DNA of 64,000 nt from a virus, in UHGV virus genome UHGV-0305822, one strand, 5' to 3'. Positions 7,854-61,610 of this stretch are shown here, one piece after another. Made by a program: the position numbers and the translations under genes. The first letter of the stretch is position 1. Every line of letters starts with the position of its first letter. The notes beneath the pieces are model-generated. The model saw only the letters and a program-made list of their open reading frames with translations. It did no database searches and had not been told where the DNA came from.

Positions 7854-9138
7854 CTTTGGCTTCTCTTAATAATTTTTCCTTTTGGGCACGTTCACGAACA
7901 CAGCGTGGGCAATAACACATGCTCGTGTCGTGGAACGCTTTTGCTGACGTCGTACCCATCTTCTGTTTCCAGTATTCCGCCACCATCAGTTTCGCTGTCG
8001 TCCAGCCACACTGACGTCGTTCAGCGTGATACGCCTTACGGTCTTCTAACGTCCCTTCCCCGTTCTCGTAAGAAGCCGCTGCGCAGCTACCACAAGCGTG
8101 TTTCATCGGACAACCTAAACAGGTCTCTGGGTAGTTGGTATATTGCGTTTGAATCTCTTCTAACAATTTACCGTTGTCCAGACTGACGAATTCCCGACCT
8201 ACCAACTCAAACACCGCAGAACGCGACGTTACCGTTGACATAAAGCGGTTACAGCCAAAGATCTTACGGTCAAATCCTAAGCACGTCATGTGCGTTAACG
8301 TCCCACAAAACGGACGTAAACGTTCTGGGTTCAGCCGTACGGTGTCATTATACAGTAACTGGTCACGCCAGTTCGGTTCCCAAATCGTATCGAAATCCAA
8401 CCCTTCTGGAATGATGTGCGATAAGATATTACGTGGGTTGGTGTGTAATCCTTTCTCAACCCAGTAATCTATCACATCCATCATCTGTAACGCGATTGAC
8501 GTCGCCATGCTACGTGGCATAACGTCTTCGAAAGTTACGTTTCCAGAAATTGTCCCACCGCCAGTAATGTCAATTAATGACTTCATCCCCGCAGCATAGA
8601 ACGGCAGCGTTTCTAACGTAAAGGTTGCTTTTACGCCGAGCTCTGCAATGCCAACCTCTTTTAAGTAGTTATAGCCACGTACTGCGGCTTCGTAAGAACC
8701 CTGGCGTGTTGTTGTGAAGATACGATAACGGTCATGGGATTCAGGTAAGCCATCAATCGAAACCCCAACCGAAAGTTTATCTTTCCAACGTTCTACAATC
8801 TCACGGTTCAACGGACGATCTAACAGCGTTCCGTTCGTGGAGATACTAAACATAAACGGTCGGTTGTGTTCTTTACACAACTGCTCAGCGGTTTCAAACG
8901 CAGCCAGCAGCAGTTTAGGCTGCATGAACGGCTCACCACCGATAATGTCGATAATAACTTCAACATTCGGTTCGTTTTTATCACGTTCAAAACAGGCGTG
9001 TAAGAAATCAACAATATCCGCCGCTTTGTTGTTACGCGGGTACTTACGTTCGTAACAATATTCGCAGTCCAAGTTACACGAAAGGTTGGTTACGATCTGA
9101 TACGTTAACTGCTTAGGGAATTCATTTACTTGACTCAT
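7816..9138 (-). CDS. radical SAM enzyme with SPASM-type C-terminal Cys cluster (peptide/protein-modifying maturase candidate)
   Basis: N-terminal CNLDCEYC (Cx3Cx2C radical SAM 4Fe-4S motif); GGEPF SAM-binding-like motif; C-terminal FCG...C...C and CLGCPMKHACGSC clusters typical of SPASM auxiliary Fe-S domains. Confidence 0.8.
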   Translation of the reverse strand: MSQVNEFPKQLTYQIVTNLSCNLDCEYCYERKYPRNNKAADIVDFLHACFERDKNEPNVEVIIDIIGGEPFMQPKLLLAAFETAEQLCKEHNRPFMFSISTNGTLLDRPLNREIVERWKDKLSVGVSIDGLPESHDRYRIFTTTRQGSYEAAVRGYNYLKEVGIAELGVKATFTLETLPFYAAGMKSLIDITGGGTISGNVTFEDVMPRSMATSIALQMMDVIDYWVEKGLHTNPRNILSHIIPEGLDFDTIWEPNWRDQLLYNDTVRLNPERLRPFCGTLTHMTCLGFDRKIFGCNRFMSTVTSRSAVFELVGREFVSLDNGKLLEEIQTQYTNYPETCLGCPMKHACGSCAAASYENGEGTLEDRKAYHAERRQCGWTTAKLMVAEYWKQKMGTTSAKAFHDTSMCYCPRCVRERAQKEKLLREAKDETNSDQQYYEA

Positions 9139-10045
9139 TTGCCGCCCCTCTATTACGCCCTGCCATCACTACGCGACGAATATATTCGTACGCCTCTACA
9201 CCGATAGAGAAGGCCAGTTGGTTACATCCCGATTCCAGAACGTTAGGTGCATTCTGGAGTTGGTGCTCACCACCGTCTGCATTAATCCAAAGACTTTCGC
9301 TGCAAACGTTACACCCTTCTTCAAACACTTTACTTACTGTAAAGCCGCATTCACGACCATTTACTACATTCAGTCGTTCAATGTTATCCTGAACCTGATA
9401 GTAGCCGTAAATAAAGTTCATGACGTGGTCAGGCGATAAAGGTTTTGGCATTTTCGCATCTAAGAGTAACGTCATTGCACGGAAACCGTAATGGTAAATC
9501 GCGCTGTGCAGCTGAATAATATCTTCGTGCCAGCGTTTGTCCCCTAAACGGTCCCGTGTCAGGACACCCCAAGTCTGGACATTATCCAGCTCGTAGATCG
9601 TTTCCAGTGCTTCGTAACAGCCTTCGTCAATAAAGCGCATAAACGGGCGCTCAGACGACTTAAACCCATCGATGCTAACGTAGACATTGTCAAACTGTTT
9701 TAGCAACGGGAGATGCGATTTACGCATCTTTAAGCCATTGGTATACAACTGGTGTTTGAGTTCTGGACGAATCACTTTTAATTCGTCAACAAACGCCTCA
9801 ATTTTACGGGTTGCCAGTAATGGCTCACCACCCGTCCACTGAATTTCGGTAATGGTTGGATTAGCTTCCAGCGCTTCCAAAATTCGCTCACGTTGAAACT
9901 CTCGCGGAGAATCTTCACGATTCATGTAATAGGCTCCACCGCAGAAGCTACAATCCAGGTTGCACTTGGACGTAGCGACTACGGACAATACGGTGGGTTT
10001 ATCGTATAAACGATTCGATAACCTTGGTTCTGCATTGGTTGTCAT
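9122..10045 (-). CDS. radical SAM enzyme (second, shorter; partial auxiliary Cys cluster)
   Basis: CNLDCSFCGG (Cx3Cx2C); GGEPLL motif; C-terminal ECGF...CNVCSE Cys cluster; overlaps downstream rSAM start by 17 nt. Confidence 0.75.
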   Translation of the reverse strand: MTTNAEPRLSNRLYDKPTVLSVVATSKCNLDCSFCGGAYYMNREDSPREFQRERILEALEANPTITEIQWTGGEPLLATRKIEAFVDELKVIRPELKHQLYTNGLKMRKSHLPLLKQFDNVYVSIDGFKSSERPFMRFIDEGCYEALETIYELDNVQTWGVLTRDRLGDKRWHEDIIQLHSAIYHYGFRAMTLLLDAKMPKPLSPDHVMNFIYGYYQVQDNIERLNVVNGRECGFTVSKVFEEGCNVCSESLWINADGGEHQLQNAPNVLESGCNQLAFSIGVEAYEYIRRVVMAGRNRGAANESSK

Positions 10046-27241: not shown

Positions 27242-27309
27242 TATCTACTCCTATAGTCCGTGGGCGTCGAAGTTCATACTATGACTTGAATCTATAGAGG
27301 AAAAGAGCT

Positions 27310-29039: not shown

Positions 29040-30005
29040 TTATTGCGGAGGTGATGTCGGACCATGTTTACCTTGGTGAATGTGAACGCTAAAGGTAATA
29101 CCGGAAATAATGGCATCTTTAACCGTAAAGACACCCACGCCTTCACCCGTACCACCGTATTTGAAGTTCTTAGCGACTTCCAAATTACCGGTGAACATCG
29201 CTTCATTCCCTTCCTGTTTAAAGTTCGGCGTTTTGAACGTTGTCGAACTGCCCGCTTCTGTTAACCAGGTTTGTGTTTTAAACGTAACGGAATTCGCTGC
29301 TTCCGTATTGCGGACTTCGCATTTTTCATTAATCGTTTTCGTTTCCAGGTTAATAGAGCGCTTTGAATAAATGAACGCATCTTCTTTGTTGATGTTCACT
29401 TTTGAAAGCATCGCATTCTCAAACCCGAGATCATCTTCAACCGAGTTAATGTAATACTTGTTTCCTTTATGGTCAACGCACTGCCACGTACCGTTTGCAT
29501 TATCAAACTGAAACAACCACGCCGCTTTCTCGCCATTCACCATACTTGTTCTTAGCGTGATATGTTTGTCAATCGTCGAAACGTTCAACACATACGCATT
29601 GGACAAGTCATCCGCCATTTGGTTTTCGGGGTCAGCCGACCACGCATAAACCGCATCTTCTAATCGCTTAACGTTAGCGAAGTTCAGATCAATCCAAAAA
29701 TAAATATCGGTTTTCCCCAAACGTAACAAGATAACGTAGTCTTCTCGTTTAACGTCAGGGGAATTAATTCGGTTGGAGTTAAACTTCCACCACTTTGCTG
29801 TTATCGTGTTACCCGTCTTAATGGTTAGGTTATCTGTTGCACCAGATGTTTCATGCGTCTTTTCAGTTGCTGAAGAAACAGATTGCACCACGGTAGGGTT
29901 AGCAAAGTTGGTTTCAATTGGTATCACTTTTACCCGATCTGTACCACGGGGTTTGTCTTCCGCGACGATACCAATTGAGAAAAAATCAACACTGGATTTC
30001 TCCAT
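29040..30005 (-). CDS. putative virion (tail/baseplate-associated) protein (321 aa)
   Basis: First gene of minus-strand structural block; beta-rich composition; placement only, no motif match. Confidence 0.4.
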   Translation of the reverse strand: MEKSSVDFFSIGIVAEDKPRGTDRVKVIPIETNFANPTVVQSVSSATEKTHETSGATDNLTIKTGNTITAKWWKFNSNRINSPDVKREDYVILLRLGKTDIYFWIDLNFANVKRLEDAVYAWSADPENQMADDLSNAYVLNVSTIDKHITLRTSMVNGEKAAWLFQFDNANGTWQCVDHKGNKYYINSVEDDLGFENAMLSKVNINKEDAFIYSKRSINLETKTINEKCEVRNTEAANSVTFKTQTWLTEAGSSTTFKTPNFKQEGNEAMFTGNLEVAKNFKYGGTGEGVGVFTVKDAIISGITFSVHIHQGKHGPTSPPQ

Positions 30006-30325
30006 CGGGACGTTCCTTAGATCGGAATTGATTTCAGATATATTTTACTTAAGTGAATAGGGACTGAACTGGTACTTCAGTCCCTACGGACACGTTACCC
30101 TTTTAGTACCTTTCGTTAAAGGTTACTAAAAATTACATTATGTCCCTTTATTCTGCTACTCGGGATACCGGTAGGGGGTAGGGGGCATTATGTATACGGA
30201 TATAAATAGCGGAGGTATACGGAGTATACCGACATACTCTTCCCAGAGGAACGTAGTGACTTCCTTATACCTCTTTTACAATCCATAATAATAGCCTTCC
30301 CTTCATTGGGATTAGCGAGTAAATC

Positions 30326-31063
30326 ATGAGAGAATTATTAGACGATATCTTTACCAACACCAGTTTAGAACTTTCTTCTACGGTGGTTAACGAACTAATA
30401 AAACAATCGCAACCTGCCAAGTTAATCGATGCTGGAACAATTAAACCTGAAGATTATCCAGACAGTGACGTTATCGACTGCTTGATTGACGAATACGTGA
30501 TAGGTAGTTACGCCAACCGCGTCTTCTTTGTTTTTAATACCGAAACCAGTGTCATGTTAATCTATAAGTTGATCAGTGGTGCCGAACTTGAAGTAATGGC
30601 TGACCACATTCGTCTCCTTGCGAACACGCCTACTAGTATCGCTGATGTGCTTATTGGGAACGGTTGGCCTTTACCACCACTATTCTCTTACTTCCCTCTG
30701 TTTAGAAATGGGATAGGGTTACTCCGAAATGCGGAAAACCTTCCCGATAACGTCGAGTTATCACTGCTTGGGCCCGGCATCGATCTTTGTCCATTAGAAG
30801 ACGAGGGCACGCTGTATGGTTTACGCATTTATGTTTCTGTGTTAGAGGGATACCGTATCATCGAGTTAATTGCATCAGACTTAGCAAAACAGATCCCTGA
30901 TGTAGAAACGATTTCTAAAGCTACCCACCTGGTTGAGATTAACCCGGACGATCCCTTATTGAAATATCACGAGAAAATTGATCTTCGTAAAATCGCCACG
31001 ATGAGAGGGTGGGGTTGTGCTGAGATTACGAAGGACTATCTGCTGTTAATTAAAACCGCGTAA
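30326..31063 (+). CDS. hypothetical protein, family with conserved C-terminal GW...LL module (member 1)
   Basis: N-terminus MRELLDDIFT similar to 32897 product (MKVHLDDIFKT); C-terminal MRGWGCAEITKDYLLLIKTA. Confidence 0.55.
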   Translation: MRELLDDIFTNTSLELSSTVVNELIKQSQPAKLIDAGTIKPEDYPDSDVIDCLIDEYVIGSYANRVFFVFNTETSVMLIYKLISGAELEVMADHIRLLANTPTSIADVLIGNGWPLPPLFSYFPLFRNGIGLLRNAENLPDNVELSLLGPGIDLCPLEDEGTLYGLRIYVSVLEGYRIIELIASDLAKQIPDVETISKATHLVEINPDDPLLKYHEKIDLRKIATMRGWGCAEITKDYLLLIKTA

Positions 31064-31677: not shown

Positions 31678-32829
31678 ATGCGAAATATTATTTCTAAACC
31701 AGGTCATGCCAAAATCCTAAAAGAACTGATGGACAGATGCTATAATCGGACTTGGTCGCTACCAAGCTTAACCATCGAATCTTCATTACAACGTGAGTTG
31801 TTTGGTTATGTCATGGGCTGCTGTGTACTTACTGAATACAATGAGATTATCGCGCCTGTCGATGTCTGTACTTCCGATGAAGAAATTGAAGGTTACCAGT
31901 TCACAGCTTACACAAATTGTGGACTAAATTACCGTAAACTCGTTGTTAGGGAAATGAGTAGCAACCGGAAGATTATGTTTAAGGTATTCCCAAGTGGTAA
32001 AGTCAGTAATTTATGTCTTCAGCTTGAGAAAGTGCCCTTTCACGGTGCGGACATTTTAACTAAACCGGAGCTCGCGTTATTAAGCGGGTTAATTGGTTTT
32101 GAAGCAAAAACCATCAAAGTTGAGCAGGAACTTACACGAAACGATTTCGGCTCAACTTGGTACGAAAGTTTCTTCCGCTACGAAATGTTAAGTGATAAAG
32201 CTATCAAACTCACTTACCGTTCTACCGACGACATCGTTTACCACATTTTAATTAGCGGCGAACCCCACCAGATTATTGAAGTCGAAGGAGAAAAATCCGT
32301 GCGTACCTTAAAAGATGAATTAACTGATTTTGTTAACAAAATTGATAGCGTGGGTATCAGTGAATTATTATTCCCGATTCAACATCCAGAGTTGCTTGAC
32401 GAGAAATGTGAAAACATGGTTATGGCGGTGCATTTACTTCCTGACCATCTTGCTATCTACCGTACACTTTCTAAGAACCAACTTAAAGTGTGGTGTCTGT
32501 TAAAAGACCTTTTAACAGAGGCGGGGTGGTCGTGTAGTGTAGATGTTAACTGTGAAGGAGTTGCGTTCTTCATCACAATAGGCAATCGTAGTTTTTCTGT
32601 CGATTTACCTACTCGCAGCTATTACGATTTCTTCCCGACCGCAGAAGGACGTACTGAAAAAGAACCCGCATTACTGCTCAGTGCTAAGTCGTCCAATGCG
32701 CTAATGGCGCAACTAAAGGCAAAAGACGAGAAACTGGATGCTTTACATCTACCTATAATCGGAAAAGATTACGGTTGGGCTGACGTGCAAAAATACGGCA
32801 GCCAACTGTTGTTTGTTGCTGACCTTTAA
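31678..32829 (+). CDS. hypothetical protein, GW...QLLF family (member 3)
   Basis: C-terminus DYGWADVQKYGSQLLFVADL. Confidence 0.55.
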   Translation: MRNIISKPGHAKILKELMDRCYNRTWSLPSLTIESSLQRELFGYVMGCCVLTEYNEIIAPVDVCTSDEEIEGYQFTAYTNCGLNYRKLVVREMSSNRKIMFKVFPSGKVSNLCLQLEKVPFHGADILTKPELALLSGLIGFEAKTIKVEQELTRNDFGSTWYESFFRYEMLSDKAIKLTYRSTDDIVYHILISGEPHQIIEVEGEKSVRTLKDELTDFVNKIDSVGISELLFPIQHPELLDEKCENMVMAVHLLPDHLAIYRTLSKNQLKVWCLLKDLLTEAGWSCSVDVNCEGVAFFITIGNRSFSVDLPTRSYYDFFPTAEGRTEKEPALLLSAKSSNALMAQLKAKDEKLDALHLPIIGKDYGWADVQKYGSQLLFVADL

Positions 32830-32896: not shown

Positions 32897-33670
32897 ATGA
32901 AAGTCCATTTAGACGATATCTTTAAAACCGAACCGTATATGATCGAAGGTCCGCTAACATCACTACTACTCGCCGATAGATTAGATCGTACGCTGCAATT
33001 ACAATCGATCGAATCTGCACCCGTTGACGATGTAGAGCGTTACGAGCGCATCAACTATACGCGTGGTGAGTATCGTCGCTATAAGCCAAATTCACTAAGC
33101 GTTAAACTTTGGAAAGTAAGCACAGGTAAGGTATTAACTTATCGCACTGTCGGTAGTTATTACATTCAACAAGCCAAAGAATGGCTAGAGAAAGTTAAAG
33201 AACTGAACTTCGATCTACTGAGCAAAAAACTGCGCGATCATAACGCTAGTTTGCCGATACGTAATTATTTCTCCACGATTGAAAATAGCCGTTGTTTCGT
33301 TTCTCGCGAATCCATGATATTACCTGGGGATGATGTTCAGACAACACTAAAAGATGTGGTTGTGAAGAAAATCTTTCATGAATCTGAACACGTTGGGTTT
33401 CGTATCTATCTGACGCACAAGAGACCATTTACCGTGATTCACGTTGTTACCGCACCCGAAGGCTCAGCGGTTATTCGAGAACTTCCTGATGCTCGAGACC
33501 GTTGCCCTAATGAGCCGCTTTATTTAATGTCAGGAACAAAATCAACCGCGTTGATGTCCCGTTACAGCATGTTAGATGTTGTTGACGCTGCTATGAAACT
33601 AGGTTGGAAAGAAGTGCAGCAACATGGTAAACAATTGCTGTTTATTGCCGATGTAAAACTTAATCAATAG
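32897..33670 (+). CDS. hypothetical protein, GW...QLLF family (member 4)
   Basis: C-terminus KLGWKEVQQHGKQLLFIADVKLNQ. Confidence 0.55.
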   Translation: MKVHLDDIFKTEPYMIEGPLTSLLLADRLDRTLQLQSIESAPVDDVERYERINYTRGEYRRYKPNSLSVKLWKVSTGKVLTYRTVGSYYIQQAKEWLEKVKELNFDLLSKKLRDHNASLPIRNYFSTIENSRCFVSRESMILPGDDVQTTLKDVVVKKIFHESEHVGFRIYLTHKRPFTVIHVVTAPEGSAVIRELPDARDRCPNEPLYLMSGTKSTALMSRYSMLDVVDAAMKLGWKEVQQHGKQLLFIADVKLNQ

Positions 33671-34298: not shown

Positions 34299-34391
34299 GT
34301 TCGTTAATATTAAAAATAATTTCAGATATATATTACCTAGGTGAGAGTACAAAAGCTCTCACTTAATAAAACCATTTTAGGAGTATTAAAG

Positions 34392-51795: not shown

Positions 51796-52457
51796 TCGTT
51801 TATAGTGAGGTCTTGTCAAAAGCCCCTCGGTTTTTACAAACTCACTTTATGTATAACGCACGGCAGTATTGGGGCTTTAAAGCCCCTTACTCCGAAGATT
51901 GGGAAGTTGTGGAAAAGTTAGCATTTGTGTTTTCTCTTTCGTTGTTGTGGGAGATCATTGCACTATACAACGCAGGTTGTGATATCCCGGAGAACGGCTT
52001 TTTCCAACAACACCTATTCCAAAAATTCACAGCATCGGTAGAAAATCATGAAGTGCGCAAGGAGTGTATCGGCTACGCCGAGCATTCTGAAGAATTGAGA
52101 AAGATTTCCAAATTAGTTATCACGCGGACATGGGCTGAATTCGAAACTTACCCCGAAAAAATAATTTGGTTTAATCGTGAACAGTTTATTAAAGAGGCAG
52201 TCAGTCAACATCCCGTTCGATTAATCGTGTTAAAGCCGTCCGATCTCGCCTTACGCCACACCTATTCGTCTCCAGAGGAAATCGTTTTTTCCTCTGGAAC
52301 AACAGATTATGGTATTTTTAAACAAGGAGATTCTTGGATTCTTCCACACGATTTAGACGGGTATTTGCTCAGTAGCGATCAAATACATTCGGGTTATGAC
52401 TCACAGGTGAAGGAGTTTACAGTCGATCCTTTTTTCGCTAAAAATATTCTTAGATAG
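51789..52457 (+). CDS. hypothetical protein (222 aa)
   Basis: ATG overlapping upstream stop. Confidence 0.5.
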   Translation: MLIVYSEVLSKAPRFLQTHFMYNARQYWGFKAPYSEDWEVVEKLAFVFSLSLLWEIIALYNAGCDIPENGFFQQHLFQKFTASVENHEVRKECIGYAEHSEELRKISKLVITRTWAEFETYPEKIIWFNREQFIKEAVSQHPVRLIVLKPSDLALRHTYSSPEEIVFSSGTTDYGIFKQGDSWILPHDLDGYLLSSDQIHSGYDSQVKEFTVDPFFAKNILR

Positions 52458-52493
52458 ATATTATCCAGGTGTAACACCATTGGAGTTATTAAA

Positions 52494-61539: not shown

Positions 61540-61610
61540 TCTTACTACCTCAATTTCAAAAAGAAGTCAGACAGATATTATCTACGTGAGACATTCTTTA
61601 GGAGTGAATT

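Follow-up and report, generated by a model that had tools for sequence, protein, structure and literature searches.

SPN3US and phiEaH2 are phiKZ-like bacteriophages that carry multisubunit RNA polymerases. To our knowledge, SPN3US-like (Chimalliviridae-type) phages have no known replication origins, operon-level control signals or structured non-coding elements, and the logic of their middle and late promoters is poorly defined. In other phages, the nut sites of lambda and the put sites of HK022 consist of a short conserved linear box beside a hairpin whose stem varies among relatives, and each genome has one or two of them, placed where a long run of co-directional genes begins. The locus described here is like these sites in layout only, in that a linear box and a variable-stem hairpin are found at the head of a gene block; the element contains no boxA consensus (CGCTCTTA), the polymerases in question are phage multisubunit enzymes, and we know of no N-like protein in these phages.

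Early promoters of AR9 and phiKZ follow a rule in which an AT-rich block is separated by 6 nt from the transcription start (PMC5312081, PMC7598289). The virion RNA polymerase (RNAP) of phage N4 recognizes promoter hairpins with a stem of 5–7 bp, in which the stem positions need only to pair, and a C-G-closed 3-nt loop of GGA or GAA (PMC4496689, PMC13037366), and N4 carries a GCGGAGC mini-hairpin (PMC13037366). In T4-type phages, the units known as PeSL combine a host sigma-70 early promoter with a stem-loop that is a terminator upstream of that promoter (PMC2839356, PMC4122927). In phiKZ, 201phi2-1, EL and PA3, a conserved small RNA (sRNA) derived from a 5′ UTR lies ahead of gp182, a tail gene (PMC11512511). 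The locus studied here can be likened to this last case by description, since it too places conserved structured non-coding sequence beside a tail-module gene in nucleus-forming jumbo phages; however, the neighbor here is a gp164 homologue, and it is the strand opposite the tail gene that is structured.

Layout of the locus and its early promoter

The window, meaning the whole 64,000-nt stretch analyzed, belongs to an uncultured jumbo phage that is kin to SPN3US and phiEaH2. With all ORFs of 60 aa or more taken as coding, no part of the window has a longer ORF-free stretch than positions 30006–30325 (320 nt, the runner-up being 166 nt), and at this point structural genes that run leftward border a block that runs rightward, both as the first-pass annotation had stated. 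That annotation had read the stretch as divergent promoters with regulator-binding sites. The spacer is instead a mosaic of an early promoter, a deletion remnant and a conserved element, and not a pair of simple divergent promoters. The features of the locus are as follows.

29040–30005, minus strand: baseplate gene, homologue of phiKZ gp164 (phrog_3216, E 9e-114), the element's constant left neighbor
30030–30055, plus strand: putative early promoter of the virion-RNAP type, core CAGATATATTTTAC at 30035–30048, N6, predicted start G30055
30058–30086, plus strand: 5′ stem-loop of the predicted early transcript, 11-bp stem and 7-nt loop
30101–30131, plus strand: hairpin (z = −3.6), probable remnant of the 3′ end of a micro-gene
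30128–30268, plus strand: conserved single-copy element, whole
30326–31063, plus strand: first rightward ORF, 245 aa, of no known family; the right neighbor differs between groups

The baseplate protein matched 290 jumbo-phage records by tblastn, PHIKZ164 among them. The 245-aa ORF gave no Pfam or PHROG match, and the right neighbor elsewhere is unrelated: Seoulvirus and Erskinevirus have a gene of 105 aa there and Wellingtonvirus one of 138 aa, neither of which has a tblastn homologue in the window. In SPN3US, the element locus closes the largest minus-strand block of the genome.

A rightward promoter was proposed correctly, but it coincides with none of the motifs that had been listed, and no leftward promoter is evident; a TAGTATG late-promoter motif lies upstream of the baseplate gene in relatives and is missing in the window's subclade. 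Promoter prediction, suggested earlier as a check, returned no sigma-70-type site where 3.1 were expected and a promoter of phage type at 30035–30055, which, like the hairpin at 30101–30131, had gone unremarked. The arrangement CAGATATATTTTAC-N6-G is recognizable from its sequence as belonging to the class of AT-rich early promoters that virion RNAPs use in phiKZ-like phages (PMC5312081), and transcription is predicted to start at G30055. The AR9 early promoter, AAATATATATTAT-N6-G(+1), has the same layout as the CAGATATAT(A/T)TTAC-N6-G seen here, with its predicted start (PMC5312081), and the motif includes the extended AT-rich block (~10–13 nt, centered near −10) of that class. The window holds two copies (30035 and 34324) and shuffled sequences hold none. 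A strict-pattern scan recovered 55 distinct copies, nearly all within contigs of the SPN3US-like group, at 5–6 per near-complete related contig and on a single strand only; SPN3US itself has six class-1 copies, all on the plus strand. Across the 55 distinct copies CAGATATAT(A/T)TTAC is invariant, and in the copies seen, as in the window at G30055, TTAC is followed 6 nt on by a G, although the scan pattern (NTANGTG) itself demanded that G. Copies are followed within ~40–70 nt by a ribosome-binding site (RBS) and ATG, and most of the others, like that at 30035, have a hairpin at +1. As in phiKZ- and AR9-like phages, these early promoters are multi-copy, precede small genes of unknown function and have an A/T-rich region further upstream (PMC5312081, PMC7598289, PMC11512511), whereas the sequence is specific to the SPN3US-like group and the 30035 copy has no micro-gene of its own. 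The consensus CAGATATATATTAC-N6-G, together with a 5′ hairpin, offers a ready early-gene marker for the group. The upstream A/T block of the 30035 copy is degenerate, because it overlaps the RBS of the baseplate gene on the opposite strand.

The hairpin GGGACTGAA/TTCAGTCCC that had been noticed earlier is real and extends to 11 bp (TAGGGACTGAA/TTCAGTCCCTA, 30058–30086). Its predicted energy is −16.4 kcal/mol (z = −4.2), a stability that none of 200 shuffles matches, and its arms covary within the clade such that GGGACTGAA, GGAGCTGAA, GGGGTTGAA and GGGGCTGAA each have a matching 3′ arm. The same hairpin shows loop inversions. Between it and the element, a micro-ORF of 25 aa is found in L010, L011, L178, L181, L182, L184 and L190 and is absent from the window, L009, L179, L180 and L183; the 25-aa pattern is kept in three divergent alleles. 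By comparison with these relatives, the hairpin at 30101–30131 is the leftover of a deleted early micro-gene, which the cassette of promoter and 5′ hairpin would once have driven. Only in the window's clade does the cassette separate the baseplate gene from the element, and genomes that are otherwise collinear differ in whether they have the 25-aa ORF, a pattern that shows gain and loss of small early genes. Units of the PeSL type likewise join a promoter and a stem-loop that bracket small novel ORFs and mark indel boundaries (PMC2839356, PMC4122927); here, in contrast, the promoter is of the phage-polymerase type, the stem-loop is placed downstream of the predicted start, at the transcript's 5′ end, and no sigma-70-like site was found at the locus.

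Anatomy and conservation of the single-copy element

The element is composed, in order, of T-run-AC, ~37 nt, G5-TA-G5, a spacer, CGGA-[hairpin]-GAC, a second mini-hairpin and TTCCTTAT, and its parts in the window are listed below.

30128–30136, plus strand: A/T-run ending in TTAC, AAAAATTAC, from the alignment anchored on the G run
30174–30185, plus strand: two G5 runs, G5-TA-G5, the most conserved linear block
30186–30208, plus strand: spacer, the counterpart of helix P1 of relatives, which holds TATG (30189–30192), the first GTATACGGA and TATAAATA
30211–30233, plus strand: unit 1, GGA-[GGTATAC GGA GTATACC]-GAC, with a 7-bp stem, a GGA triloop and invariant GGA...GAC flanks
30248–30268, plus strand: unit 2, mini-hairpin GGA-AC-GTA-GT-GAC, then TTCCTTAT

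This order of blocks is kept in Seoulvirus, Erskinevirus, Machinavirus, Wellingtonvirus and Derbicusvirus. The counterpart of the A/T-run in other genera is T5-7AC[G/A], placed 36–46 nt ahead of the G runs. Every member of the element has G4-5-N2-3-G5, and a single site resembling G5-TA-G5, with one mismatch, occurs elsewhere in the window. Of 7 groups, 5 have T-N-T-G 1–3 nt past the G run. In Seoulvirus and Machinavirus the P1 spacer folds into a strong hairpin whose G.T wobbles are on the plus strand, and in Erskinevirus and Derbicusvirus it is short and unpaired. The hairpin of unit 1 has a z of −3.7, and its GGA...GAC flanks could contribute one G-C pair and two G.A pairs. Counterparts of unit 2 differ by compensatory pair changes, reading GGA-GC-GTA-GC-GAC in Derbicusvirus (an exact GCGNAGC, as GCGTAGC), GGA-AC-GGA-GT-GAC in Machinavirus and GGA-AT-GGA-AT-GAC in L015, and nearly all members end in the tail (N)TCCTT(T)AT. 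The individual hairpins are significantly more stable than shuffled sequences, whereas the fold of the whole element is not (z = −1.2).

All of the repeats named in the first-pass annotation were located within this frame: GTATACGGA at 30192 and 30215, GTATACCGA at 30224, the inverted pair GGTATAC/GTATACC at 30214–30220 and 30224–30230, and the octamer TATAAATA at 30201–30208. The tandem GTAGGGGG GTAGGGGG exists as a repeat, the exact form of which is G-TAGGGGG-TAGGGGG (30171–30185), that is, G5-TA-G5 at 30174–30185. The G repeat and the GTATAC repeats are pieces of the conserved element; what had been taken for direct repeats at regulator sites are arms and flanks of a hairpin element present once per genome, and not iterated operators.

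One copy per genome, always adjoining the baseplate gene, is found in six or seven genus-level groups. The element was located at the equivalent locus in relatives through baseplate homology, independent of the DNA pattern, and the block of G runs and hairpin is kept where the baseplate protein is only 42–77% identical; in L193, a partial relative with 54% baseplate identity, it is absent at the locus. The argument that these motifs exceed chance is based on this conservation among relatives and not on counts within the window. The comparison with related phages that had been recommended comes out in favor of conserved motifs, since the block recurs at the equivalent locus and is conserved across genera. 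Exactly one pattern match is present in each of 12 near-complete jumbo contigs, nhmmer gives one match per locus over 853 kb, and the complete SPN3US genome has one nhmmer match at E 8e-14, the next being at 0.22. A covariance model (CM) built without Derbicusvirus, L018 and L077 still recovers all three.

Within the clade, 119–122 of 122–123 aligned nt are identical (97.5–100%), compared with 67–97% at third codon positions of the adjacent gene; by this measure the element is under purifying selection that is tighter than at the synonymous sites of that gene, an essential one. Seven distinct stems of the GGTA...TACC type, all fully paired, occur in other lineages, and a CM-based count finds 5 of 8 stem pairs changed on both sides. 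The covariation score is 0.307 (against 0.118 ± 0.037), a value reached by 0 of 500 shuffles. Because the stems differ in length, a MAFFT alignment given to RNAalifold put the inner stem out of register, and a per-lineage stem table and CM-guided alignment were used instead. GNA triloops on the plus strand make up 12 of 15 hairpin tips; such a tip is missing in SPAsTU and L186, and some lineages have a central T or C in the triloop.

Searches of other kinds gave the following results. A search of the window for the GGA-hairpin-GAC unit returned this site and two weak, chance-level matches only, and k-mer enrichment upstream of genes returned RBS and terminator words only. The loose pattern G5N3G5...GCGGAG gave only GC-rich noise among the IMG/VR matches listed, and a tighter pattern recovered the element; megablast gave no match, and blastn with the 141-nt core was too insensitive. 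Rfam 15 had no match at gathering score in the 64-kb window, and at E up to 10 over 29950–30400 gave noise only, namely a U5 snRNA at 23 bits (gathering 40) and two miRNAs. A scan for intrinsic terminators (a G+C-rich hairpin plus a T run) found 0 sites in 29500–30900, and a tRNA scan was negative. No description of the element, or of replication origins in these phages, was found in the literature. The pattern of occurrence is best explained by a previously undescribed element that was inherited from the common ancestor of SPN3US-like jumbo phages. At ~70–140 nt, unique and sharply bounded, it provides a concrete mutable target for the study of replication or transcription control at the boundary of structural and non-structural genes.

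Several identities for the element were considered and rejected. An intramolecular G-quadruplex, which takes four tracts of 3 or more G joined by short loops, would have only GGG, G5 and G5 with a first loop of 9 nt, and some relatives are without the first tract. A coding micro-gene is opposed by the 32-aa ORFs at 30188–30288, which are not kept among relatives, and by inserts of 7, 16, 17, 18 and 19 nt that shift every frame. Half of the lineages carry GTA or GCA in place of CsrA-type GGA loops, the RfaH ops sequence (GGCGGTAGnnTG) is unmatched, and HDV-like or other small ribozymes are opposed by the lack of a complementary P1 strand and of an Rfam match. Anti-Shine-Dalgarno mimicry by GAC(C)TCCTTA would involve a C present in only two lineages, and a sigma-32 or sigma-E promoter is not conserved. 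A long-range helix between the G run and a pyrimidine tract is predicted in many folds; it shows no covariation and is weakened by one variable site (CATTATG versus CAATATG).

Strand and mode of action

Minimum free energy is lower on the plus strand in all 18 representatives, and the P1 helices of Machinavirus and SPN3US have their G.T wobbles on the plus strand. The conserved blocks are fixed, the hairpins placed between them measure 0 to ~20 nt, and compensatory substitutions change the stems; together these features suggest that the element acts single-stranded and folded on the plus strand. The plus strand is also the template strand of the leftward baseplate gene.

How would such a strand function? 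The hypothesis that we tentatively prefer, while giving it somewhat less than even confidence, is that the mosaic spacer carries the element as a cis-acting folded leader RNA of the rightward operon. A virion-packaged phage RNA polymerase would fire rightward from 30035–30048, starting at G30055 and running into the 11-bp stem-loop, and the element would be transcribed as the leader of the first rightward operon. The folded leader RNA would then bind a protein and act in cis, possibly as a nut/put-type read-through or stability signal that could serve any downstream gene. We infer RNA as the active form, and the cis-regulatory role, from the placement of the element: in the window's clade the early promoter is upstream of it and no terminator intervenes; it ends 20–57 nt ahead of the next start codon in the window's clade, Erskinevirus, Seoulvirus and Wellingtonvirus, where the downstream genes are of three unrelated kinds; and in Seoulvirus and Erskinevirus it occupies the entire 177–180-nt upstream region of the right-hand gene. 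However, in Derbicusvirus and L018 an early promoter sits between the element and the next gene, which places the element outside the early mRNA of that gene and argues against a leader. Beyond the window's clade, no promoter can be named for the element itself.

An alternative hypothesis, possible though less probable, is that the plus strand extrudes hairpins beside the G runs, with T-rich flanks, and that a phage enzyme reads this single-stranded DNA, either for origin priming as at the G4 origin or ssiA or as an N4-like hairpin promoter. The narrower proposal of a unique G-run/GNA-hairpin site, recognized as single-stranded DNA, that starts replication or a hairpin-dependent transcript made by a multisubunit phage polymerase is rather unlikely in our estimation; if true, no initiation site of a nucleus-forming jumbo phage would have been defined by sequence before it. 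One copy per 220–250 kb genome is consistent with a unique replicon origin, as is the extreme conservation of every nucleotide within the clade. The element has T-rich tracts on both flanks and two G5 runs, beyond which there are no iterons. The locus also coincides with a divergence of genes and a local minimum of cumulative GC skew, but this minimum is uninformative for an origin because skew follows gene orientation (the end of a minus-strand block), and in SPN3US the minimum, at 161 kb, is only local, the global extremes being at 1 kb and 202 kb.

The shape of the hairpins also bears on this alternative. C-GNA-G triloops with flanking G.A pairs are typical of exceptionally stable DNA mini-hairpins, found where replication and transcription originate, and not of RNA hairpins (PMC13037366), which favors DNA as the active form. 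The GNA tips, and the exact GCGTAGC of Derbicusvirus, correspond to the GCGNAGC class found at phage replication and transcription origins, in which a C-GNA-G tip with a sheared G.A in the loop caps a short G-C stem (PMC13037366), although the lineages SPAsTU and L186 do not share the GNA tip. Loop inversions of the kind seen in the neighboring 5′ hairpin are a sign of fold-back structures in DNA. The logic of the N4 promoters, namely conserved bases with a stem of 5–7 bp that needs only to pair and a GGA/GAA loop, is shared (PMC4496689, PMC13037366), unit 1 offering a 7-bp GGTATAC-GGA-GTATACC between invariant CGGA...GAC flanks, and the non-virion RNAP of AR9 reads promoters on single-stranded template DNA (PMC7598289). 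In contrast, an N4-type promoter class would be multi-copy, with one per early operon, whereas one copy per genome is present here, and N4 promoters have nothing that corresponds to the G runs or to the GGA...GAC frame. Multisubunit RNAPs are encoded by the phages, and the complete SPN3US annotation includes beta/beta′ fragments of such enzymes only and no single-subunit virion RNAP of the N4 type.

It is improbable that the element is a free-standing plus-strand sRNA gene of ~60–120 nt, in which the G runs would be the seed, CGGA-hairpin-GAC and a U-rich tail would be the 3′ end, and C/U-rich targets would be bound in trans. Linear conserved blocks occurring together with covarying hairpins, and the T-rich tract TTATTCTTCTTTT that follows the last unit in most genera, are consistent with such a gene, which would also suit the separate early promoter after the element in Derbicusvirus and L018; phiKZ and 201phi2-1 provide the precedent of conserved 5′-UTR-derived sRNAs upstream of a tail gene (PMC11512511). 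However, a consensus terminator scan was empty, the next RBS in L010-type members and Wellingtonvirus lies within 20–31 nt and leaves no room for termination, the window contains no complementary C-run target, and no promoter was found for the putative gene.

Equally doubtful is a duplex control region of the baseplate late promoter, at which a phage protein bound to the G runs and to CGGAG/GACNTCC boxes would time leftward late transcription. The baseplate gene is the sole constant neighbor, and a minus-strand late-promoter motif of the TAGTATG/ACTATG type abuts the left edge of the element, just left of the T-run, in most other genera and in the L010-type part of the window's clade, where it stays at the element even if the cassette has moved the gene 200 nt off. 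Against this, inserts of 0–20 bp between the boxes would ruin spacing and helical phase, a duplex site would have no need for compensatory stem changes, other TATG-type late promoters of the window are without such an element, and the window's subclade has lost the adjacent TATG with the element intact.

Host-type divergent promoters, a reading built on the first-pass annotation, with TATAAATA as the −10 box and GTATACGGA and the G repeats as iterated regulator sites, are highly improbable: the listed motifs exist and the region divides oppositely oriented gene blocks, but sigma-70-like sites are missing, TATAAATA is not conserved beyond the window's clade and is absent from the homologous site of every other genus, phiKZ-like phages use their own polymerases for transcription (PMC7598289), and the GTATAC repeats are the covarying arms of a hairpin.

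Genomic setting and a probable early promoter

The ORFs around the spacer at 30006-30325 belong to jumbo-phage structural families, and the minus-strand gene ending at 30005 encodes a baseplate protein (phrog_3216, E 9e-114) that tblastn follows through 290 related jumbo-phage records as far as phiKZ gp164. The closest isolates by protein identity are Erwinia phage phiEaH2/Stratton (73-77%) and Salmonella phage SPN3US (about 62-64%); megablast returned no DNA-level match to any isolate, and near-identical genomes (about 220-228 kb) are represented only by metagenome or IMG/VR contigs. The window is therefore from an uncultured SPN3US-like, i.e. phiKZ-like, phage, a type that is transcribed by its own multisubunit RNA polymerases (PMC7598289).

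The first-pass annotation had called the spacer the longest non-coding stretch, and at 320 nt it is, the next being 166 nt when coding is defined as ORFs of at least 60 aa. All of the motifs that it listed were located, its hairpin proving to be longer than described, whereas a promoter motif and a second hairpin were absent from its list. The promoter prediction that it proposed gave no sigma-70-type site by consensus scan against 3.1 expected. The same type of scan found no intrinsic terminator in the spacer region, and no tRNA was found.

Features of the spacer
30035-30055: promoter motif
30058-30086: 11-bp hairpin, -16.4 kcal/mol, z = -4.2 (7-nt loop at 30069-30075)
30101-30131: second hairpin, z = -3.6
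30128-30268, plus strand: conserved element
30174-30185: two G runs, G5-TA-G5; read earlier as tandem GTAGGGGG, which is present, though the actual arrangement is G-TAGGGGG-TAGGGGG
30192 and 30215: repeated unit GTATACGGA; 30224: GTATACCGA
30201-30208: octamer TATAAATA
30214-30220 and 30224-30230: inverted GGTATAC/GTATACC, fold z = -3.7
30233-30238, minus strand: AGTATG
30248-30260: second minimal unit, GGA-AC-GTA-GT-GAC

We interpret the spacer as a mosaic: an early promoter followed by a 5' stem-loop, a part that is highly probable, is joined to a single-copy, plus-strand folded element. The sequence CAGATATATTTTACTTAAGTGA (30035-30056) recurs at 34323-34344 with 3 mismatches, which no shuffled sequence reproduced. 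When searched across 2.9 million viral contigs, the strict form CAGATATATNTTACNTANGTG was found in 55 stretches, nearly all from jumbo contigs of the SPN3US-like group, with 5-6 copies per near-complete genome. Aligned copies share an upstream A/T block (gATTAAAAAtaATTT), an invariant core and a hairpin from about the predicted +1, followed by an RBS and ATG within about 40-70 nt. The AR9-type spacing rule (AT-rich block, N6, G at +1; PMC5312081) predicts initiation at G30055, such that the 11-bp hairpin would begin at +4. The arms of this hairpin covary in close relatives (GGGACTGAA, GGAGCTGAA, GGGGTTGAA and GGGGCTGAA, with a matching 3' arm each time). We class it as a new promoter of a known type, and its timing is presumably early. 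In the group genomes and SPN3US, all copies of the motif occupy one strand per genome, though genes lie on both.

Near-identical genomes differ in the orientation of the 5' hairpin loop, which reads CTGGTAC in the window and L179 versus GTACCAG in L009, L019, L178, L180 and L183, and CTCGCAC in L011 and L012 versus GTGCGAG in L181. Such switching between inverted repeats suggests the formation of fold-back structures at the DNA level.

In seven relatives (L010, L011, L178, L181, L182, L184 and L190) a 25-codon micro-ORF lies 3' of the promoter and hairpin (L010 ~2790-2870, equivalent to window ~30090-30125); it has been lost in the window, L009, L179, L180 and L183. Three divergent alleles keep one amino-acid pattern (MSTEKKSGLDEVIELFKRYNPAIPR, MFAEQKDGIEEVVRLFRHYSPYLPR, MSTKKESHNELLKRLKDYTPFSTFR), and the second hairpin of the window matches the 3'-end sequence of the micro-ORF in L178 and L019. 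In L019 the reading frame is interrupted by an additional A within an A run, which reflects either a sequencing error or a pseudogene. The full cassette of promoter, hairpin and micro-ORF is confined to the window's clade, and other genera have 70-100 nt between the baseplate start codon and the G runs. The cassette behaves like the PeSLs of T4-type phages, promoter-plus-stem-loop cassettes that shuffle small ORFs (PMC2839356, PMC4122927), but differs in promoter type and hairpin position.

A conserved structured element

Homologous spacers were retrieved via the baseplate protein, independently of any DNA pattern. The comparison with related phages, also proposed by the first-pass annotation, revealed a conserved block order. 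The octamer TATAAATA is clade-specific and unsupported. Six groups share one order: a T run with a terminal AC, then 36-46 nt to G4-5-N2-3-G5, a 9-26-nt spacer leading to CGGA-[insert]-GAC, and finally (N)TCCTT(T)AT before a T-rich tract. Baseplate proteins of Derbicusvirus are only 42-46% identical to that of the window.

Groups sharing the block order, with the stem formed by the insert
Window's clade: GGTATAC/GTATACC (window)
Erskinevirus (phiEaH2, Asesino): GGTGAC/GTCACC
Seoulvirus (SPN3US, SPAsTU, SNUABM_29): GGTATCC/GGATACC (SPN3US), GGTACTCT/AGAGTACC (SPAsTU), GGTACCC/GGGTACC (SNUABM_29)
Machinavirus-like (Caitlin, L015, L018, L186): GGAG/CTCC round an inner AC-GGA-GT (Machinavirus), GGTAGC/GCTACC (L186)
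Wellingtonvirus (Kwan, L020, L077): GTCT/AGAC and GGAT/ATCC
Derbicusvirus (Phobos, Derbicus, L145): GC/GC

A 21-base gapped pattern matched exactly once in each of 12 near-complete jumbo contigs, other matches being GC-rich noise, and an nhmmer profile run at maximum sensitivity on 853 kb of related DNA gave one match per baseplate locus (best extra E = 0.82). The complete SPN3US genome contains a single match at 161,476-161,553 (E 8e-14; next E = 0.22), and the partial relative L193 lacks the element at its baseplate locus. Within the window's clade (13 genomes), the element is identical at 119-122 of 122-123 aligned nucleotides, versus 86-99% for the adjacent baseplate gene and 67-97% for its third codon positions; the edges are sharp, with indels or replacements beginning directly on either side. 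The element is under strong selection. Inserts of 7, 16, 17, 18 and 19 nt rule against a coding function. We found no published description of this element, a conserved structured non-coding element of a phage that matches no Rfam family.

The CGGA...GAC insert forms a hairpin in all lineages, and the observed stem is reached by at most 1.3% of letter shuffles per insert, except for the 2-bp Derbicusvirus stem. A covariance model seeded with eight of the stem sequences also finds L018, L077 and the Derbicusvirus loci, all outside the seed. In the model-guided alignment 90% of cells pair and five of the eight pairs change on both sides; the covariation score of 0.307 exceeds that of shuffles (0.118 ± 0.037, none of 500 as high) and of every slid control, in an alignment that, being fitted to the model, is biased towards structure. 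The second minimal unit is carried by the window and Erskinevirus and has counterparts with compensatory changes in Derbicusvirus (GGA-GC-GTA-GC-GAC) and L015 (GGA-AT-GGA-AT-GAC). The invariant GGA...GAC frame, which ViennaRNA draws as a closed 2x2 internal loop, would provide a G-C pair and two G.A pairs at each hairpin base. The spacer after the G runs is a strong hairpin in Seoulvirus and Machinavirus, and short and unpaired in Erskinevirus and Derbicusvirus. The fold of the whole element is not significant (z = -1.2), and covariation lends no support to a long-range pairing of the G runs. At window 9968-9986, on the plus strand, a sequence similar to the GGA-hairpin-GAC unit (GGACGTAGCGACTACGGAC, 5-bp stem, CGTAGCGAC core) lies antisense inside the minus-strand ORF 9122-10045 and is probably due to chance.

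Active strand and candidate roles

Hairpin tips read G-N-A on the plus strand in 12 of 15 cases, wobbles in the spacer helix are G.T on that strand (GATCTGTG/CATAGATC in four Machinavirus-like sequences, TTTATGT/ACATAGA in SPN3US) and A.C mismatches on the other, and predicted folds are more stable for plus in 18/18 representatives. Together these features point to the plus strand as the functional one. Judged from sequence, the element must act as a folded single strand, since self-pairing inserts of 0-20 nt are tolerated between conserved blocks and would cost a duplex site its spacing.

The reading that we tentatively prefer is a leader RNA. The element would be transcribed as the head of the rightward operon and act in cis, bound by protein, as a read-through or stability signal. 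In the window's clade the early promoter lies upstream with no terminator between. The element ends 20-57 nt before a start codon in this clade, Erskinevirus, Seoulvirus and Wellingtonvirus, where the genes to its right represent three unrelated first genes (245, 105 and 138 aa), and in Seoulvirus and Erskinevirus no other sequence is available to promote or lead the first gene. It also heads a long co-directional block (30.3-46.4 kb in the window, genes 0174-0201 in SPN3US).

The leading rival, somewhat less likely, is a site at which DNA hairpins initiate replication or transcription; it would make the element more interesting if true. Tips of the C-GNA-G type combined with G.A pairs characterise GCGNAGC mini-hairpins, which are exceptionally stable and have been described at G4 and ssiA priming sites and N4 virion-polymerase promoters (PMC13037366, PMC4496689), and Derbicusvirus has exactly GCGTAGC; the element is unique per genome, and the nearby loop inversions imply fold-back structures in DNA. 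In both the window and SPN3US the element coincides with a local minimum of cumulative GC skew, but the skew follows gene orientation, has its global extremes elsewhere and is neutral between the RNA and DNA readings. A trans-acting small RNA is improbable. Equally improbable is a duplex control region for a baseplate late promoter: a minus-strand TAGTATG/ACTATG late-promoter-like motif does lie at the left edge of the element in the majority of other genera and in some members of the window's clade, but compensatory stems and variable spacing would be left unexplained. In hairpin-tip anatomy the element is similar to N4 hairpin promoters and origin mini-hairpins, in layout to nut/put signals, and in genomic setting to the conserved sRNA that precedes a phiKZ tail gene (PMC11512511), but it lacks at least one defining feature of each.

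Neighboring genes and other promoter-like motifs

The adjacent window ORFs 31678-32829 and 32897-33670 have a common C-terminal domain of about 65 aa (phrog_26772), also present in SPN3US_0175, phiEaH2 gp097, Caitlin gp184 and Phobos gp176; this paralogous family lies directly right of the variable zone. The annotated GTG start of Caitlin gp184 (L006 3815-4648, NC_031120) falls inside the element (…GGAGGAACGGA|GTG…), and its annotated N-terminus is probably spurious because translation more likely begins at an in-frame ATG that has an RBS and lies about 100 nt downstream. Between the element and the next gene, four Machinavirus-like genomes (L015, L006, L186 and L192) have an extra hairpin that is non-coding and conserved; it reads (G)TATGGC-N5-GCCATAC, then GGATACCGTTTTCG, and is located ~60-150 nt to the right of the element.

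A second promoter-like class, AGA(T/C)AGAT(A/G)TTATC-N6, occurs only on the plus strand and directly upstream of genes, including an RNAP subunit gene in SPN3US, where it is also found beside the major capsid gene. It may belong to a different temporal class from CAGATATATATTAC.

Sites of the second class
Window, plus strand: 52452-52471, 61569-61589
SPN3US, plus strand: 4427, 23810, 25226, 28969, 72486, 72684, 100815, 109893, 161919, 184044

The 68-nt divergent spacer at 27242-27309, between a 1440-aa virion gene and a 420-aa gene, contains CATAGTATG, in which TATG is read on both strands, giving it the appearance of two phiKZ-type late promoters placed back to back. Words like (A/C)(C/G)TATG also lie upstream of several other genes. 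In the window's clade the box CGACATCC is changed to CGACATAC, creating the minus-strand AGTATG within the element; this could now serve as the baseplate promoter, giving a 5' UTR of about 228 nt, in place of the usual TAGTATG beside the T run, which the window's subclade has lost.
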